64,000 bases of DNA from Patescibacteria group bacterium (GTDB taxonomy: Bacteria > Patescibacteriota > Microgenomatia > UBA8517). Below the pieces are notes generated by a model. It was not told where the DNA came from, did no database searches, and saw nothing but the letters and a program-made list of their open reading frames with translations. Positions 8,818-54,500 of this stretch are shown in pieces. The stretch lies in assembly GCA_022868165.1 (NCBI GenBank), contig JALHYA010000001.1, positions 12,937-76,936 of the forward strand. The letters run 5' to 3'. Made by a program: the position numbers and the translations under genes. How positions within the stretch are numbered: position 1 is the stretch's first letter; each line of letters opens with the position of its first letter.

Positions 8818-9816
8818 TCAGAACCTCTTATAGAAATCAAGGTCGCTTAATATGGCCTGATTCCATAAAGGAAGCATATTGTGGTCGGAAGCGGGGTAGA
8901 GCTGGTAGTTCAAATCCAAGTTCAAGTTCAAGAGAGACTTGGCTAGATCGTCGCTCCATTTTACCGGAACGGATTGGTCGGCGGTCCCCTGGTCAAGCTC
9001 AATAGGAGCTTTTATCCGGTCCAAGTTGCCATGTATCGAGTAAAGATTCGGGTCGTAGAGCTCCTCAAAATTTGCGATTTCCGAGCGCAAGTACTTGCCC
9101 AAGTCCGGGCTGTCGTCAGTGTAATAAAGAATTGAATAGGGAAAGGGCTTTGAAACCGGCGCCCAAAGCACAGTGGGGATGTTTTTACCGGTTATCTCCA
9201 AGACAGTTAAGGCAATTTGGCCTCCGTTTGAATGGGCCCATATGAACGACCTTTTCTTGTCCCACTTTGAAACGGAGTCTAAGGATGCCATAACGCTCAT
9301 TACGGTTGTATATGTTTGAAATCTGGCCTCAAAAGTGCTGTTCGGCTCGGGGTCGGAATCTCCATAGCCCAAAAAGTCGGGCGCAACGGTAATATAGCCT
9401 TTTGAGGCAAAAACCTCGGCGCCGTGTTGGGTTCCCTCCCCTATCGTGTATTTTTCCTTGTCGACGTAGCCCCGAATCATAATAATTATCGGGAAGGGGC
9501 CTTCGCCTTTGGGCATATTTATCATCCCGCTTAGCTTTTTGGCAGGTTTGCCGGTTAATGTCGGGTCGAAATAATGAATGAACTCATAGGAGGTGAAGTT
9601 CGAAGTATCCTGGATAACCTTTCCGAGCTCGATCTTTCCTGCAGGGACATTGGCTTTGGACAAGTTTTCTATAGTGTATTTGTCCAGCGGTCTGGGTACG
9701 ATTTGGGCAATGGATTTTTTAAGTTTGGGTGAGGTAAAAAGAAGATTCAGACTCCAGCCCAGAGAAATAAAGAGAATTGCGCAAAGCGTATATAAAATGA
9801 CCTTTTTCATATTCAT
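8818..9816 (-). CDS. alpha/beta-hydrolase (S9/dienelactone-hydrolase-like) with signal anchor
   Basis: AHSNGG nucleophile elbow (GxSxG) and an N-terminal hydrophobic segment. Confidence 0.55.
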   Translation of the reverse strand: MNMKKVILYTLCAILFISLGWSLNLLFTSPKLKKSIAQIVPRPLDKYTIENLSKANVPAGKIELGKVIQDTSNFTSYEFIHYFDPTLTGKPAKKLSGMINMPKGEGPFPIIIMIRGYVDKEKYTIGEGTQHGAEVFASKGYITVAPDFLGYGDSDPEPNSTFEARFQTYTTVMSVMASLDSVSKWDKKRSFIWAHSNGGQIALTVLEITGKNIPTVLWAPVSKPFPYSILYYTDDSPDLGKYLRSEIANFEELYDPNLYSIHGNLDRIKAPIELDQGTADQSVPVKWSDDLAKSLLNLNLDLNYQLYPASDHNMLPLWNQAILSDLDFYKRF

Positions 9817-10103
9817 AGACCGTTTGTTTTCAACCTTTTTCTGTCCACTTTGTGCTTATGGATTTTTCTTCTTTTTGCGGCTTCGGGTCTTTTCCCTTCC
9901 GCATGGGATTTAGGTTTTCCTTTGTGCTTAGTCAGGTCTTCAAACATTTTAGCAGGGTCTATTTCTTCGCTTTTGTGCCTCCTTAGATACGAATCAACAG
10001 CTCTTTGTGCCCTGTCCTCATCGTTGGCGAAAAATCTTTTTAGATGTCTTGCGAAGTCGCTATGTCCGGGAATAAGTTCCGGTTCCCTCTCTACTGTTGC
10101 CAT
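9813..10103 (-). CDS. small basic hypothetical protein
   Basis: 96-aa Lys/Arg-rich ORF with host-like codon usage, divergent from the dinB operon. Confidence 0.4.
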   Translation of the reverse strand: MATVEREPELIPGHSDFARHLKRFFANDEDRAQRAVDSYLRRHKSEEIDPAKMFEDLTKHKGKPKSHAEGKRPEAAKRRKIHKHKVDRKRLKTNGL

Positions 10104-10156: not shown

Positions 10157-10185
10157 TTGACTTCGGGTTTTATTCGGATTATACC
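10157..10185 (+). promoter_or_regulatory. promoter of the ORF86-dinB operon with embedded TTCGGG-N5-TTCGG motif (candidate LexA box)
   Basis: TTGACT (10157-10162), spacer containing TTCGGGTTTTATTCGG (10162-10177), -10-like TTATAC (10179-10184). The ATG at 10195 implies a leaderless or very short leader. Confidence 0.5.
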
Positions 10186-10194
10186 AATATTATA

Positions 10195-10455
10195 ATGATA
10201 CAAAAGATTTCGGTACCGGTATCGGTTGAACTGGTTTTCGACCACAAAACCCGCAAGGTCTTTCCGAGAAGGGTTCTCTGGGAAGGCAAGCTCTACCCTA
10301 TCGTCAAGGTTGGCCTTCACCACACGTTTCGTGAGGGTCGCACATTATTTCATGTTTTCTCCGCTTCTTCGCAAACCTTGTTTTTTAGGCTGGTTCTCAA
10401 TACCGACAATTTGCAGTGGAGATTGGAGGAAATTTCCGATGGACTCCCCGACTGA
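10195..10455 (+). CDS. small protein (86 aa) encoded first in the dinB operon; function unknown
   Basis: The ATG lies about 10 nt after the -10 element, the same architecture as lexA. Host-like codon usage. dinB starts 30 nt after its stop. Confidence 0.45.
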   Translation: MIQKISVPVSVELVFDHKTRKVFPRRVLWEGKLYPIVKVGLHHTFREGRTLFHVFSASSQTLFFRLVLNTDNLQWRLEEISDGLPD

Positions 10456-10486
10456 TTTATCGTTCAACCCCAAGCCTTCAACCATT

Positions 10487-11701
10487 ATGCATATGGATTT
10501 GAATTCCTGCTTTGCGACCATCGAGCAGCAGGCAAATCCCCTGCTTCGCGGAAAACCCGTAGTCGTTGCGGCCTATACGACACCCTCGGGTTGTATTGTT
10601 GCCCCATCGGTCGAGGCCAAAAGATTGGGAATTAAGGTCGGAATGAGGGTGAAAGACGGAAGATTTCTCTGCCCGGATTTGATTGTTCTTCCCCCGGACC
10701 CCTGGAAATACAGAAATGTCCACCTGAGTTTAAGAAGAATAGTTTCCGAATATACTAGCAATTTTTCCCCAAAATCGATTGACGAGTTTGTGCTCAATAT
10801 GGAAGGCTACCCGGCCTATCGGAAAGGCATGCTTAAGCTCGCCAGAGAGATTAAGAGGCGGATTAAGGCCGAAGTCGGAGATTGGCTAACGGTTTCCGTG
10901 GGAGTTGCCCCAAACAGGTTCCTGGCCAAAACCGCGGCGGGCTTACACAAACCCGACGGACTCGACGAGATTAATAAAAATAACTATGCGGATGTGTATT
11001 CCAAGCTCTCTTTGACCGATTTATGCGGGATTAAAGAGCGAAATGCCATAAGACTGGGGAGTATGGGCATATATAGTGTTTTGGACTTCTATAACGCACC
11101 ACTTTGGAAGTTGAAGGCGGCTTTTAGCTCAATTTTGGGCTACTACTGGTATTTGCGGCTTCGAGGTTGGGAGATTGACGATGTGGAGTTTGCGAGGCGT
11201 TCTTACGGCAATTCCTTTGCCCTGCCCAAGCCTTTGCAAACGGTCGAGGAGCTCTCCCCTGTTCTTTCCAAACTTGTCGAGAAAATGGGGGCAAGACTGC
11301 GTCATGCGGGGTATAAGGCCAAAGGGGTGCATTTATCCGTAGTTTATCGGGATTGGAGCTTCTGGCATAAAGGTGCTATAACCTCGAAAGTTTTGTTCGA
11401 TTCGCGCGATATTTACAAGGAAGCTTTTAAACTCTTAGTGAGTTGTCCTTACAGAAAACCCGTGCGGCAGCTTGCGGTTTCTTGCTTCAATCTCCTCACG
11501 CGCCCTGAGTTGCAAATGGAACTTTTTGAGGATGTTGTCAAAAAAGAAAAAATTGTAGAGGCGGTGGACAAGGTTAACGAGCGCTGGGGGCACTTTATCA
11601 TAACGCCCGCGAGAATGCTGGGGACCGGCGGGGTTGTAATGGACAGAATTGCCTTTGGAGGCGTAAAAGAACTCGAAGAATTCACCCTAAATTCCGGATA
11701 A
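10487..11701 (+). CDS. dinB: DNA polymerase IV (Y-family, DinB)
   Basis: MHMDLNSCFATIEQ aligns with the DinB N-terminus (MDCFFAAVE), with Y-family motifs throughout. The track ORF begins at 10226, but the conserved N-terminus starts at Met88 (10487). Confidence 0.8.
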   Translation: MHMDLNSCFATIEQQANPLLRGKPVVVAAYTTPSGCIVAPSVEAKRLGIKVGMRVKDGRFLCPDLIVLPPDPWKYRNVHLSLRRIVSEYTSNFSPKSIDEFVLNMEGYPAYRKGMLKLAREIKRRIKAEVGDWLTVSVGVAPNRFLAKTAAGLHKPDGLDEINKNNYADVYSKLSLTDLCGIKERNAIRLGSMGIYSVLDFYNAPLWKLKAAFSSILGYYWYLRLRGWEIDDVEFARRSYGNSFALPKPLQTVEELSPVLSKLVEKMGARLRHAGYKAKGVHLSVVYRDWSFWHKGAITSKVLFDSRDIYKEAFKLLVSCPYRKPVRQLAVSCFNLLTRPELQMELFEDVVKKEKIVEAVDKVNERWGHFIITPARMLGTGGVVMDRIAFGGVKELEEFTLNSG

Positions 11702-12160
11702 GTCGACCGGCGTTCCCTCGACTACTCCGTTTTTGTCCGAAAAACCGGCATTTACTTCCAAAACATAATCAATCGGATCTTTCGGCAATATCAAAGAAAG
11801 TTGCGAGTCCGGCGCACCCTTTTTGGGAGGTTGAACATTTTTATTGATTTGAAAAACCTCGGAATTTTTTATCCAGATAATATCCAAGGGAATTAGCATA
11901 TCTTTCATCCAAAAAGCCGGCTTGACACCCTTTTGGGTAAATACAAAGAACATTCCGCCGTTTGCCTCAAGGCTTGTTCTTCCGGAAAGGCCTTTACGTC
12001 TTAGAGCCTCGGAATTTGCAACCTCGACGCTTATTTTGGTATTGCCTACGGAAACCGTTTTTGTCGTTCGTGCAGGAGAAACGCTAAGTTTTTGGCTCAT
12101 GAGTCCGACGGCTATGATAAATACTGCCGCTGCCGCCAGAAGAAGGAATATTTGCTTCAC
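11687..12160 (-). CDS. DUF192 (COG1430) secreted protein
   Basis: GLSGR...GMFF and FWMKDMLIPLDIIWI motifs with an N-terminal signal. Confidence 0.6.
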   Translation of the reverse strand: MKQIFLLLAAAAVFIIAVGLMSQKLSVSPARTTKTVSVGNTKISVEVANSEALRRKGLSGRTSLEANGGMFFVFTQKGVKPAFWMKDMLIPLDIIWIKNSEVFQINKNVQPPKKGAPDSQLSLILPKDPIDYVLEVNAGFSDKNGVVEGTPVDLSGI

Positions 12161-36822: not shown

Positions 36823-36851
36823 TTGACATCTTCGGGTTTTATTCGTATTGT
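36823..36851 (+). promoter_or_regulatory. lexA promoter with embedded TTCGGG-N5-TTCG motif (candidate LexA autoregulatory box); leaderless
   Basis: TTGACA (36823-36828), 17-bp spacer containing TTCGGGTTTTATTCG (36831-36845), -10-like TATTGT, and ATG at 36857 only 5-6 nt after the -10. Confidence 0.55.
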
Positions 36852-36856
36852 TAATT

Positions 36857-37480
36857 ATGGCGCCAATAATATACAAAAGGCAATCTCAAATACTTGATTT
36901 CATTAAGCAACACATCCAAACTACGGGCGGCGCTCCCACTTTAAGAGAAATTGCCGAAGCAATCGGCGTTTCATCTCTGGCTACCGTTCACGAACACCTT
37001 GAAGCGCTTGAGGCAAAAGGTTTAATAAAACGAAAAGCCGGCAAGGTCAGAACCATTGAACTCACTCAAGTGACCGAAGAGTTCTCGTCCGACGGAATGA
37101 ATGTTCCTATTCTCGGTTTTATTGCGGCCGGTGCTCCTATCGAGCCTTATACCGACCCAAATGCTTCTATGGAGATTCCTTCACCTTTTGTTTCGGGCAA
37201 AAAAAGGGTATATGTTCTTCAGGTGCGGGGCGAATCGATGATTGAGGAACAAATAAGAGACGGAGATTATGTTGTAATTGAGCAAACCGATAATGCGACC
37301 AACGGGGAAATCGTCGTTGCTTTACTCGATAACGGCATGGCTACCCTCAAAAGGTTCTTCAAGGAAGCCACCAGGATTCGCCTTGAGCCCGCCAACGCCA
37401 AAATGAGCCCCATATTCGTTAAAAACGTAAGAATACAGGGGAAAGTTGTTGGGCTTATCAGGAAATACGGGAGAAATTAA
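36857..37480 (+). CDS. lexA: LexA repressor
   Basis: MAPIIYKRQSQILDFIKQHIQ...LREIAEAIG (wHTH) and C-terminal S24 peptidase domain (VRGESM ... K). The track start at 36848 is a TTG, and the ATG is at 36857. Confidence 0.85.
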   Translation: MAPIIYKRQSQILDFIKQHIQTTGGAPTLREIAEAIGVSSLATVHEHLEALEAKGLIKRKAGKVRTIELTQVTEEFSSDGMNVPILGFIAAGAPIEPYTDPNASMEIPSPFVSGKKRVYVLQVRGESMIEEQIRDGDYVVIEQTDNATNGEIVVALLDNGMATLKRFFKEATRIRLEPANAKMSPIFVKNVRIQGKVVGLIRKYGRN

Positions 37481-53202: not shown

Positions 53203-54500
53203 CTAAGTTCTTCCTCAAGAATTTGGCTGATAGCTCTAGGGTTTCCTTTACCTTTCAATTTTTTCTGTACCATACCAATAAGATATCCTATCACTTGTCC
53301 CTTGCCTTTTCTGTAATCTTCAACCGCGCTCTTCTCTTGGCTTACTACGGCTTTTGCGGCATCTTTCACCTGACTTACGCCGGCAAATTCTTTGGTCGTC
53401 AACTCCACAACCTTTGCAACCAGCCCGGCCGGTTCGGGGAAATCCCTGTCGAACTTTTTATTCACTATTAAATCGGCAATCGCCGAAGCAGATATCCTGT
53501 ACCGGCTTCCCAGCTCTACAGCTTTATCAAAATAATCGGCCGTTTGCCCCGACGATGCCAAGATAAAAGCGAATTCCGGTTTTATGCCGAAATCTTTAAT
53601 GAATCTTTCTCTTTTTTGGGCCGGAAGTTCGGGAGTATCAAGTTTAATCTTTTCGATTTCGTCCTTGGTAAAGCTCATCGGGGGGATATCCGGTTCCGGA
53701 AAATATCGATAATCTTTTGCTTCTTCCTTGCTCCGCTGCGATACGGTAGAGCCGATTTTTTCGCTATAACCCCTCGTTTCCTGTTCTATCTTTTTTCCTT
53801 TGGACAAAAGCTGTTTCTGCCTCTCGATTTCGGAATTTATTGCTTTCGATAAAAATCTGAACGAGTTGATGTTTTTGAGTTCCACTTTGTAGTCCGGCAA
53901 TTCCTTGGATGTCGAAACCGAGATATTTGCCTCTAGGCGCATTGAGCCCTTTTCCATATCGGCACTCGAGATTTCCAGATATCTAACGACAGTCTGAACT
54001 TCTTTCAAAAACTCGATAACCGTTTCCGCGTCCTTAAAATCCGGCTCCGTTACCAGCTCAACCAGAGGAACACCACTTCGATTGAAATCCACCAAGGAGA
54101 CGTCTTGCCCGTCAACTACTTCATGTATCATCTTGGCAGTATCTTCCTCAAGATGAATTCTTCTAACACGGACGCTGTTCCACTTACCCTTGGTGCATAA
54201 AGGCAAATCGTACTGGCTAATCTGATAGGCCTTTGGCAAGTCGGGATAAAAATAATGTTTTCTGTCGAACTTTGAAAATTCGGAAATCGTGCAGCCAAAA
54301 GCCAATCCCAGTTTAACCGTATCCAAAATCGCTTCTCTGTTTGCGTACGGCAATGCGCCGGGAAGACCCAGACAAACCGGACAAACTTGAGTGTTTGGCT
54401 TCTTTGCAAAATGGTCCGAAGCACATCTGCAAAACATTTTGGACTTCGTGTTGAGCTCGATATGAACTTCCAAACCAATTATGGGGTTTAAGTTTTTCAT
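53199..54500 (-). CDS. gatB: Asp/Glu-tRNA amidotransferase subunit B
   Basis: [20 protein letters not shown]... N-terminus of GatB. Confidence 0.85.

Follow-up and report, generated by a model that had tools for sequence, protein, structure and literature searches.

ImuB-C is an all-β domain of approximately 80 residues, which is found either at the C-terminal end of the ImuB protein or as a small protein encoded in operons with lexA, dinB, or dnaE2 (PMC3765255, PMC6511836, PMC12926913). The same three studies have already described stand-alone ImuB-C proteins in lexA/dinB operons, as well as predicted PolY-ImuB-C-RecA complexes and operons of the type lexA-imuB-C-polY. The features of the domain listed by Aravind in 2013 include a conserved C-terminal tryptophan and several conserved basic positions, and it was originally proposed by Aravind et al. 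to act as a free sensor of damage or DNA structure (PMC3765255). According to more recent modelling, the domain in ImuB binds DnaE2 and ImuA (PMC12926913). In Geobacter sulfurreducens, the genes are arranged in the order lexA-imuB-C-polY, with an active polymerase that contains a RecA-NT-like motif, a motif class that was defined in the same study (PMC6511836). In Deinococcus deserti, the stand-alone ImuB-C protein was identified as Deide_1p01890 (PMC8072749) and is encoded in the operon lexA-imuY-imuB-C-dnaE2. In the ImuB protein that belongs to the mutasome ImuA-ImuB-DnaE2, the ImuB-C domain comes after the Y-family polymerase fold and a RecA-NT motif, and this protein is catalytically dead and serves DnaE2. 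The fold of ImuB-C is described as resembling a β-barrel, without a close relative in the PDB. To our knowledge, no stand-alone ImuB-C protein has an experimentally shown function, and no structure has been solved.

We examined a 64-kb stretch of DNA, here called the window, which contains a small gene at positions 10195..10455 on the forward strand with an ATG start codon and a product of 86 amino acids (MIQKISVPVSVELVFDHKTRKVF...), exactly as described in an earlier sequence-only reading. This is a real and strongly conserved protein-coding gene, far beyond what is expected by chance. A protein search identified homologs in 436 protein clusters at E ≤ 0.01, and the best 120 of the 436 clusters were 66% to 88% identical to the window protein. 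The homologs were almost always exactly 86 amino acids long, and those among the matches listed were always labelled "hypothetical". Their hosts were Woesebacteria and other Microgenomates within the candidate phyla radiation (CPR). A profile search retrieved 425 clusters defined at 50% identity, while a tblastn search of phage genomes with the small protein gave no match. The pairwise differences at codon positions 1, 2, and 3 were 0.35, 0.26, and 0.60, respectively, as is expected for a sequence that codes for protein. The conservation of the amino acid sequence spans all 86 residues, with 25 invariant positions among 32 sequences, and an AlphaFold2 model with a pLDDT of 93 contained seven β-strands and no helix. 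The homologs, the codon-position pattern, and the predicted fold all uphold the proposal of a separate conserved gene, except that it can hardly be called unannotated, since many metagenome-assembled genomes already list it as a "hypothetical protein".

A dinB homolog was located directly downstream of the small gene and on the same strand in 80 of the 80 related genome loci that contained it, which span Woese-, Shapiro-, Collier-, Curtiss-, Gottesman-, Davies-, and Woykebacteria as well as WWE3. The same arrangement as in the window was also seen for the distant family member P0269. The sequence-only reading had placed the small gene first in the dinB operon and had suggested that its position be examined in relatives, and the unbroken association across these loci supports the view that it and dinB form an operon of two genes, in which it is the first cistron. 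Neither lexA nor dnaE2 was found within 4 kb of the operon in any of the loci examined, and no genes for ImuA or DnaE2 were found adjoining it. In the window, lexA is located about 26 kb from the operon.

The window protein did not match any family in Pfam or NCBIfam even at E ≤ 1, and a scan against PHROGs gave nothing usable. Among 112 diverse members of the family, PF20114 (DUF6504) was the only Pfam family that was matched recurrently (25 members, best E-value 1.5e-4). The matches of these relatives were all below the gathering score of 24.2 bits, with P0265 at 19.1 bits, and the homology therefore rests on profile-profile comparisons. When the family profile A2 was compared by hhalign to a profile of 27 DUF6504 sequences, the two aligned over their full length with a probability of 86% (E-value 5.4e-6, 77 columns), and the comparison to Deide_1p01890 alone gave a probability of 82% (E-value 1e-5, 72 columns). 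The match to the single C-terminus of ImuB from S. meliloti was weak (E-value 0.09, 30 columns), with the P-x3-W-x-G-R segment aligned as expected. The PF20114 model also finds residues 442-512, in the C-terminal domain of S. meliloti ImuB, and, at 30 bits, Deide_1p01890, the RefSeq name of which is "DUF6504 family protein". A profile search of the kind that the sequence-only reading had called for thus assigned no Pfam family to the window protein itself, but did connect its family to DUF6504.

The predicted order of the strands in the small protein is the same as in ImuB-C/DUF6504. Furthermore, the protein displays the traits listed by Aravind, in that it is an all-β protein of about 80 amino acids with a C-terminal tryptophan and conserved basic residues, and its residue pattern does not look catalytic. 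The tryptophan, W75, is invariant in alignment A1 and at least 90% conserved in the family profile A2, while alignment A1 shows no variation at the basic positions K38 and R65 and a conservation of at least 90% at R46 and R49. The gene neighborhood is likewise of the ImuB-C type, combining a Y-family polymerase gene at every locus with a putative SOS box that is shared with lexA. The 86-aa protein is accordingly placed as a divergent, stand-alone and hitherto unlabelled member of the ImuB-C/DUF6504 superfamily, with the probability of homology being 82% to 86% rather than above 95%. This overturns nothing that is known. The ImuB-C family has already been described and is functionally uncharacterized, and several hundred "hypothetical proteins" in the CPR gain a label.

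The dinB gene was previously taken to start at position 10487, about 30 nucleotides after the stop codon of the small gene. The stop codon is indeed 31 nucleotides upstream of that ATG, from which a protein of 404 amino acids could be translated, and the Pfam IMS match starts only at the MHMDLNS segment (from 10487). A mechanical open reading frame of 491 amino acids from TTG 10226 also exists. However, dinB most likely starts at ATG 10439 and encodes a protein of 420 amino acids (10439..11701, forward strand; Pfam IMS and IMS_C), which is predicted to be an active Y-family DNA polymerase. With this start, the two genes overlap by 17 nucleotides, and there is therefore no real intergenic gap of 30 nucleotides. 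A GGAGG Shine-Dalgarno sequence for dinB is located on the forward strand at 10425..10429, within the small-gene codons L77-E78-E79 and 9 nucleotides before ATG 10439. In relatives without a start codon at the "MH" position, an in-frame upstream ATG was always present, and a gene caller applied to one relative placed the dinB start 17 nucleotides inside the small gene. Codon E78 was GAG in 21 of 28 loci with a gene overlap versus 9 of 25 loci without one (Fisher p = 0.006).

The segment between the two candidate start codons (10439..10486, forward strand) encodes an N-terminal extension of DinB, MDSPTDLSFNPKPSTI, with the core motif FNPxPST, which is conserved as a protein sequence in every locus. 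The extension comprises about 16 amino acids, of which F9 and N10 are nearly invariant, and because the region codes for this part of DinB, the intergenic indels occur in multiples of three. The sequence-only reading had pointed out that a genuine N-terminal extension of DinB across the small open reading frame would speak against a separate gene; a conserved extension does exist, but its length falls far short of what would be needed to absorb the small open reading frame, which is thus not refuted. A programmed +1 frameshift that fuses the small protein to DinB was also considered because dinB is in the +1 frame relative to the small gene in 57 of 81 loci. It was rejected, as the in-frame ATG with its Shine-Dalgarno sequence explains the frame bias, and loci with dinB in the other frames have an ATG of their own. 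These observations correct the dinB start for this lineage and reveal a compact layout, in which a first cistron that is predicted to be leaderless harbours both the start codon and the ribosome-binding site from which the second is translated. Such embedded starts deserve attention in gene calling and annotation.

Upstream of the small gene, we read from the sequence a -35 hexamer, TTGACT (10157..10162), and, 17 nucleotides after it, a weak -10 hexamer, TATACC (10180..10185), both on the forward strand; the latter was not called in a consensus promoter scan in which T was required at position 6. The spacer is filled by a candidate LexA operator on the same strand (10162..10177), a direct repeat of the form TTCG-N7-TTCG with an exact match to the consensus (TTCGGGTTTTATTCGG). 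The lexA gene of the window (36857..37480, forward strand; 207 amino acids; Pfam LexA_DNA_bind, 1e-20, and Peptidase_S24, 1e-30) has a similarly built promoter on the forward strand (36823..36851), which consists of TTGACA (36823-36828), the box TTCGGGTTTTATTCGT (36831-36846), and the -10 hexamer TATTGT (36846-36851). With up to two mismatches allowed, these were the only two copies of the box in the 64-kb window, with no mismatch upstream of the small gene and one mismatch upstream of lexA. At the same threshold, 38 sites were located within 250 nucleotides upstream of the small open reading frame in the 80 loci, compared to a single site in the remaining 1.22 Mb of those loci. A -35-like hexamer with at most one mismatch to TTGACT was fused to the box in 48 related loci, and in 26 of these 48 the box started 29 to 33 nucleotides before the start codon.

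The small-gene ATG follows 9 nucleotides after the -10 hexamer, with no Shine-Dalgarno sequence and no GGAG in between, and the ATG of lexA follows 5 nucleotides after its own -10 hexamer, likewise without a Shine-Dalgarno sequence. This geometry puts the predicted transcription start at about position 10192, which is 0 to 3 nucleotides before ATG 10195. Since the box is located so close to the start codon, the mRNA of the small gene is probably leaderless or nearly so, as for lexA. The SOS box proposed in the sequence-only reading thus found support in its conservation among relatives and its second copy at lexA, and the distance from the box to the ATG is compatible with the proposed lexA-like leaderless architecture. 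The direct-repeat LexA box of Alphaproteobacteria has the form GTTC-N7-GTTC. The operator seen here is likewise a direct repeat, with an 11-nucleotide periodicity, and it precedes both lexA and the translesion polymerase operon in the window. For Patescibacteria (SOS regulon: Sanchez-Osuna, Barbe and Erill 2017), a direct-repeat LexA motif is cited in PMC7739468. The operon of the small gene and dinB is thus a putative member of the LexA (SOS) regulon, as judged from a lexA-like box that overlaps the promoter and is kept in relatives. With this box in the -35/-10 spacer, LexA would repress the operon and DNA damage would induce it.

The best solved relatives of the window DinB protein are DNA polymerase IV and Dpo4, and the usual catalytic positions of the Y family, D20 (motif DLNS) and D115/E116 (motif SIDE), are invariant. 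Comparisons with a profile of the DinB C-terminal tail pointed to a RecA-NT-like motif, KKEKIVEAVDKVNERWGHFII (11540..11602, forward strand), for which the best local match in full-length D. deserti RecA covered residues 5-25 (21 columns) with an E-value of 0.074, which is weak because the motif is short. The PolY-[ImuB-C]-RecA type calls for an intact polymerase with a RecA-NT-like motif in its tail; in the DinB examined here, the catalytic positions are invariant and the match to the motif is weak. Further downstream, the tail contains the motif DRIAFGG (11642..11662, forward strand), in which D402, R403, and F406 were invariant in 22 aligned sequences. The tail of UmuC binds UmuD', and by analogy the DRIAFGG motif is a possible docking site for a small subunit.

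Taken together, we consider it probable, at about 0.72, that the locus is a LexA-controlled operon for an ImuB-C-like protein and DinB with coupled translation, in which the small protein acts as a small subunit or recruiter of DinB. A sigma-70-type promoter would drive the imuB-C-like gene and then dinB, with LexA presumably bound to the direct-repeat box in the spacer until DNA damage switches the operon on. Translation would begin on a leaderless or almost leaderless mRNA for the first cistron and at ATG 10439 for dinB, and with GGAGG and the dinB start codon located within the final codons of the small gene, the synthesis of the two proteins would be coupled. The most likely role that we infer for the small protein is that of an SOS-induced, non-catalytic subunit or recruiter, which would form a complex with the catalytically active DinB. 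RecA would probably take part as well, attached to the DinB tail at the RecA-NT-like motif. Such a pair would correspond to the predicted PolY-[ImuB-C]-RecA type of mutasome and may thereby influence lesion bypass.

The small protein resembles the known stand-alone ImuB-C proteins in its size (about 80 to 86 amino acids), predicted all-β fold, C-terminal tryptophan, and location next to the gene for a Y-family polymerase under LexA control, which is putative here, and the gene order is as in Geobacter, where imuB-C precedes polY. Unlike these proteins, the window family scores below the PF20114 threshold, is restricted to Microgenomates/CPR, and has motifs of its own (GLHHT and W-x-LEEISDG), and its gene overlaps dinB and carries the dinB ribosome-binding site. 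Further differences are that lexA is not part of the operon, that no dnaE2 is present, and that DinB has the additional FNPxPST extension. Given the order of domains in ImuB, the window DinB and the small protein resemble a split ImuB, although the window DinB retains D20, D115, and E116 and has no DnaE2 or ImuA gene nearby. These findings extend the imuB-C-polY module to organisms whose genomes are minimal and have no dnaE2 next to the operon.

The same homology and dinB context would also agree with the original proposal for ImuB-C, according to which the small protein would be a free sensor of DNA damage or structure that guides DinB to lesions or stalled forks but is not a stable subunit. 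The conserved basic residues K38, R46, R49, and R65, and the conserved histidines H42, H43, and H53, are compatible with such a role. We nevertheless consider it unlikely, as no DNA-binding fold was recognized in the small protein, and the gene overlap with its embedded ribosome-binding site suggests a stoichiometric co-production that is typical of complex partners. Moreover, ImuB-C is regarded in the recent modelling as a domain for protein-protein interaction (PMC12926913).

The link between the small protein and DinB comes from sequence and gene context, and small SOS-induced proteins that act as division inhibitors or checkpoint proteins exist in many bacteria. The small protein could therefore be an SOS effector of this kind that is unrelated to the polymerase and only shares its operon. 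This is very unlikely, given that the association with dinB is obligatory in all 80 loci and several candidate phyla, and that ImuB carries the homologous domain as a fusion with a Y-family polymerase. Nor was a membrane segment or any other trait of the known small SOS division inhibitors found in the small protein.

The sequence-only reading had likened the small protein to YolD- or UmuD-type partners of Y-family polymerases. YolD/YqjX and UmuD' are small, SH3-like subunits whose N-terminal arm is inserted into polymerases of the UmuC and YqjW types. The gene order, with a small gene followed by a Y-family polymerase gene, and the predicted SOS control are the same as for yolD-uvrX in phage SPR, and the polymerases of these systems have a RecA-NT-like motif as well as a C-terminal tail that is conserved, to which the candidate motif and the tail of the window DinB are comparable. 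As for the small protein, the likeness to UmuD'2C (Pol V) and to YolD/YqjX with UvrX/YqjW is one of functional analogy only, in that a small SOS-induced protein is encoded just upstream of a Y-family polymerase and presumably cooperates with it. No match to PF08863 or Peptidase_S24 (PF00717) was obtained at E ≤ 10 in 32 members of the family, while the positive controls, SPR YolD with PF08863 and the window LexA with PF00717, scored 96 and 106 bits, respectively. The hhalign probability against SPR YolD was 0.3%. Unlike these subunits, the small protein is of another fold and family and has neither an autocleaving S24 domain nor an N-terminal arm; its model is structured from residue 2, whereas SPR YolD begins with LLRDRGTIKW. 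ImuB-C has also been reported to be structurally unlike the SH3 barrel of UmuD'/YqjX (PMC12926913). A small accessory partner of the polymerase is still the best reading, but with ImuB-C/DUF6504 as its family, and kinship to YolD or UmuD' is highly improbable. Least probable of all is a translated leader that mainly delivers ribosomes to the embedded dinB site and encodes a peptide without function: the dinB Shine-Dalgarno sequence and start codon do lie inside its 3' end, where the synonymous sites appear tuned, but this is countered by the conservation along 86 residues, the confident fold prediction, the homology to a protein domain family, and the equal conservation of the protein in loci where dinB has a separate start of its own.

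Within the preferred reading of a small subunit or recruiter of DinB, a more specific and tentative possibility is that Microgenomates have a Y-family polymerase of two subunits, which operates without DnaE2 and ImuA and of which the ImuB-C-like protein is the obligatory second one. [quoted passage not shown] The pair of proteins, of 86 and 420 amino acids, is very well conserved and suited to expression and biochemistry. The small protein might dock on the lineage-specific FNPxPST extension of DinB or on its DRIAFGG tail, and it might connect DinB with either the replicative polymerase or RecA, by analogy with the binding of ImuB-C to the PHP domain of DnaE2. Finally, it was noted that the conserved histidines H42, H43, and H53 are specific to this ImuB-C-like subfamily, and the cluster could mean a metal- or ligand-dependent function that is absent from other ImuB-C proteins.

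An ORF encoding 86 amino acids was present as described in the sequence-only reading, in frame 1 from the ATG at 10195 to the TGA at 10455 on the forward strand, directly upstream of the gene for DinB, a Y-family DNA polymerase. A search of 5.8 billion proteins identified 436 clusters matching the small protein at E ≤ 0.01, and the best 120 of these were 66% to 88% identical to it and nearly all exactly 86 amino acids long. The matches came from Candidatus Woesebacteria and other Patescibacteria, were all titled "hypothetical protein", and were without any Pfam domain. Searching 1.84 billion cluster representatives with a profile yielded 425 clusters, all of them small stand-alone proteins. 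An alignment of 32 sequences contained 25 invariant positions, including G40, H42, H43, H53, W75, E78, E79, D82, and G83. The mean pairwise differences among 60 orthologous genes were 0.35, 0.26, and 0.60 at the first, second, and third codon positions, the pattern of a protein under purifying selection, and the AlphaFold2 model was all-beta with seven strands (pLDDT 93, pTM 0.80). The earlier claim of a real and separate gene upstream of dinB largely holds: homologs, codon pattern, and context agree with it, and by computation the small gene is real.

A single scan across species-representative genomes yielded 80 loci, belonging to Woese-, Shapiro-, Collier-, Curtiss-, Gottesman-, Davies-, and Woykebacteria and WWE3. 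The small ORF was kept upstream of a dinB homolog on the same strand in 80 of 80 loci, which bears out its earlier placement, and by computation the 2 genes are obligatorily paired. The arrangement was the same for P0269, a distant family member (E = 7e-11 to the family profile). Neither lexA nor dnaE2 was present within 4 kb of the operon in any of the 80 loci, and a convergent DUF192 gene 3' of dinB (11687-12160, reverse strand) closes the unit in the window, as in 35 loci, so that the unit is a two-gene operon. On the 5' side, the gene for a 332-amino-acid hydrolase-like protein (8818-9816, reverse strand) was syntenic in 30 loci, and these shared flanks place the operon in a stable chromosomal neighborhood rather than in a mobile element. 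It was also noted that foreign genes separate the small gene from dinB in 3 loci: an 899-amino-acid restriction/methylase-like ORF and a 243-amino-acid DUF3800-like ORF in L043 (2332-5805), a DUF3800-like ORF in L041 (1262-2602), and a 263-amino-acid ORF on the opposite strand in L039 (4755-5546), the functional labels being read from the sequence.

The mechanical ORF in the dinB frame opens at the TTG at 10226, and its Pfam IMS and IMS_C matches begin at MHMDLNS (10487), where the sequence-only reading had started dinB after a gap of 30 nt. All DinB homologs shared the N-terminal segment (L)-x-F-N-P-x-P-S-T-(I) directly before (M/L/I)-H-x-D-L-N-S; where a non-start codon (CTA, CTG, ATT, TTA, and others) preceded that of the H, there was always an ATG in frame farther upstream. 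In the window, and likewise in at least 30 further loci, this ATG falls within the codons for S-D-G in the small gene (tcc gAT Gga), giving a 17-nt overlap that was reproduced by an independent gene call on one relative. The window's ATG at 10439 follows a GGAGG (10425-10429) at a distance of 9 nt, made by the L77-E78-E79 codons. Given the conserved segment, the upstream in-frame ATG, and the GGAGG, dinB most likely extends from 10439 to 11701 on the forward strand and encodes 420 amino acids. The start is thus moved upstream from 10487, and the supposed gap codes for the DinB N-terminus.

The codons of the conserved C-terminal motif L-E-E-I-S-D-G (10423-10441) double as the GGAGG and ATG of dinB, and the dinB translation signals are thereby embedded in the small gene. 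E78 was encoded by GAG in 21 of 28 overlapping versus 9 of 25 non-overlapping loci (Fisher p = 0.006), and a GGAG/GAGG motif was present in 21 of 31 versus 10 of 29 (p = 0.02), both comparisons ignoring the kinship of the loci. A DinB N-terminal extension in the relatives could have accounted for the small ORF; the extension covers only 16 residues (10439-10486), so the ORF is not absorbed by DinB. These residues, with the motif F-N-P-x-P-S-T, are conserved in the clade ahead of where the palm domain canonically begins. We know of no described role for the extension, which may serve the small protein as a docking strand. The corrected dinB start with its overlap, the dual use of the LEE/SDG codons, and the FNPxPST extension are new.

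The proposed relationship of the small protein to YolD/UmuD-type partners fails, since none of 32 members matched PF08863 or S24 at E ≤ 10 and hhalign gave a probability of 0.3% against a bona fide YolD, a phage SPR protein with a PF08863 score of 96 bits. The one recurrent family was PF20114 (DUF6504), ImuB's C-terminal domain (ImuB-C), matched by 25 of 112 diverse members scanned singly (best E = 1.5e-4), all under the gathering score. PF20114 also matches residues 442 to 512 of the ImuB on S. meliloti pSymA, whose gene lies beside dnaE2. An operon on D. deserti plasmid 1 encodes, in this order, LexA, a Y-family polymerase, a "DUF6504 family protein", and a dnaE-annotated DNA polymerase III subunit alpha, identified as dnaE2 in PMC8072749. 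The DUF6504 protein of this operon, Deide_1p01890 (80 amino acids), is identified in PMC8072749 as Aravind et al.'s stand-alone ImuB-C and scores 30 bits on PF20114. Our family profile aligned to this protein alone over 72 columns (probability 82%, E = 1e-5), and to a profile of 27 Deinococcus homologs over 77 columns, which span the full length of both proteins (86%, E = 5.4e-6). The aligned motifs were P-x3-W-x-G-R-x-Y-x-(I/V) and a C-terminal W-x-L-x-x-(I/V)-x-D. The strand order was alike in the AlphaFold2 models of the small protein and Deide_1p01890 (pLDDT 92.6 for the latter), and these all-beta models fit the published beta-barrel-like fold of ImuB-C, for which the PDB has no close relative (PMC12926913). 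The family's alignment to a single ImuB C-terminus was weak (E = 0.09). We put the probability that the small protein is homologous to the ImuB-C/DUF6504 superfamily, as a divergent subfamily, at about 80%; it is a new, previously unlabeled member of a superfamily that has been described before and is poorly understood.

According to Aravind et al. (PMC3765255), stand-alone ImuB-C genes occur most frequently together with dinB, and often with lexA too. Timinskas and Venclovas reported operons of the type lexA-imuB-C-polY whose polymerase is active, and noted a RecA-NT-like motif in such polymerases; the Geobacter example is co-transcribed and induced by damage (PMC6511836). A 2026 survey placed ImuB-C-associated PolY among the Y-family groups with a RecA-NT motif, reported AlphaFold ipTM values over threshold for representatives of each of the 11 types of association module, and modeled ImuB-C within ImuB touching both ImuA and the DnaE2 PHP domain (PMC12926913). 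Papers mentioning ImuB-C call the stand-alone protein's function unknown. No paper on ImuB-C in candidate-phyla-radiation bacteria was found in the literature searched, and the assignment for these bacteria is new, as is the operon form without lexA or dnaE2, in which the window differs from the described stand-alone ImuB-C operons.

The window's DinB fits the published picture of ImuB-C-associated polymerases. Its residues D20 and D115/E116, at the usual active-site positions of Y-family polymerases, are invariant, and the DinB tail profile aligned best to RecA residues 5 to 25 (KKEKIVEAVDKVNERWGHFII against QHKALQTAMSQIEKQFGKGSI), with an E-value of 0.074 that is weak because the motif is short. 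This RecA-NT-like segment is followed by a further conserved tail, DRIAFGG. The small protein would act as a non-catalytic subunit or recruiter by binding DinB and perhaps also RecA.

The putative operon promoter, as it appears in the sequence, consists of a -35 TTGACT (10157-10162) and a weak -10 TATACC (10180-10185) located 9 nt from the ATG at 10195, all on the forward strand, and the small gene lacks an upstream Shine-Dalgarno sequence. A strict consensus scan missed this promoter because the -10 element lacks the final T. The 16-nt box TTCGGGTTTTATTCGG (10162-10177, forward strand), a candidate LexA operator, is a direct repeat TTCG-N7-TTCG with the repeats one helical turn apart; Patescibacteria (Sanchez-Osuna et al. 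2017) are cited among the lineages with direct-repeat LexA recognition in PMC7739468. Boxes with at most 2 mismatches occurred at only 2 sites in the 64-kb window, 10162 (0 mismatches) and 36831 (1 mismatch). The second lies between TTGACA (36823) and TATTGT (36846), before an ORF with its ATG at 36857 that encodes LexA (LexA_DNA_bind 1e-20, Peptidase_S24 1e-30), and the operator-like box is common to the small gene and lexA. In the 80 loci, 38 such boxes fell within 250 nt upstream of the small gene versus 1 on both strands of the remaining 1.22 Mb, and a box with at most 4 mismatches was present in 75 of 81 loci. LexA would repress the operon, and damage would induce it.

A -35-like hexamer was fused to the box in 48 loci, and in 26 of these the box started 29 to 33 nt before the start codon, which would place a canonical transcription start about 0 to 3 nt from the ATG. 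This geometry agrees with the leaderless model suggested earlier for the operon and lexA alike; the small gene would be translated leaderless and dinB by coupling. Some loci contained 2 boxes. Tandem boxes about 35 to 38 nt apart, and 20 to 70 nt upstream of the small gene, with a longer leader in place of the leaderless arrangement, were noted in L012, L014, L020, L044, L054, L058, L066, L071, and others, indicating that repression strength and 5' architecture vary within the clade.

The site ranking third among the box-like sites of the window, TTCCGGTTTTATGCCG (53574-53589, forward strand, 3 mismatches), may be due to chance. Outside the small-gene promoter, 1.22 Mb of related loci contained a single box with at most 2 mismatches, TTCGGGTTTTATTAGG in locus L011 (2659-2674), which might point to a further SOS gene of that genome. 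A 96-amino-acid ORF with a lysine- and arginine-rich C-terminus (9813-10103, reverse strand) diverges from the operon promoter; it had no Pfam, NCBIfam, or PHROG match, and the 80 related loci contained no homolog of it. Finally, many third-party metagenome-assembled genome records with the operon (L005, L006, L008, L012, L015, and others) were titled "uncultured Gammaproteobacteria" or "uncultured Pseudomonadales", and one 1.4-kb contig was placed in a "Bacteroidales" bin. On a typical Microgenomates operon, these labels probably represent placeholder or wrong taxonomy, or binning contamination.
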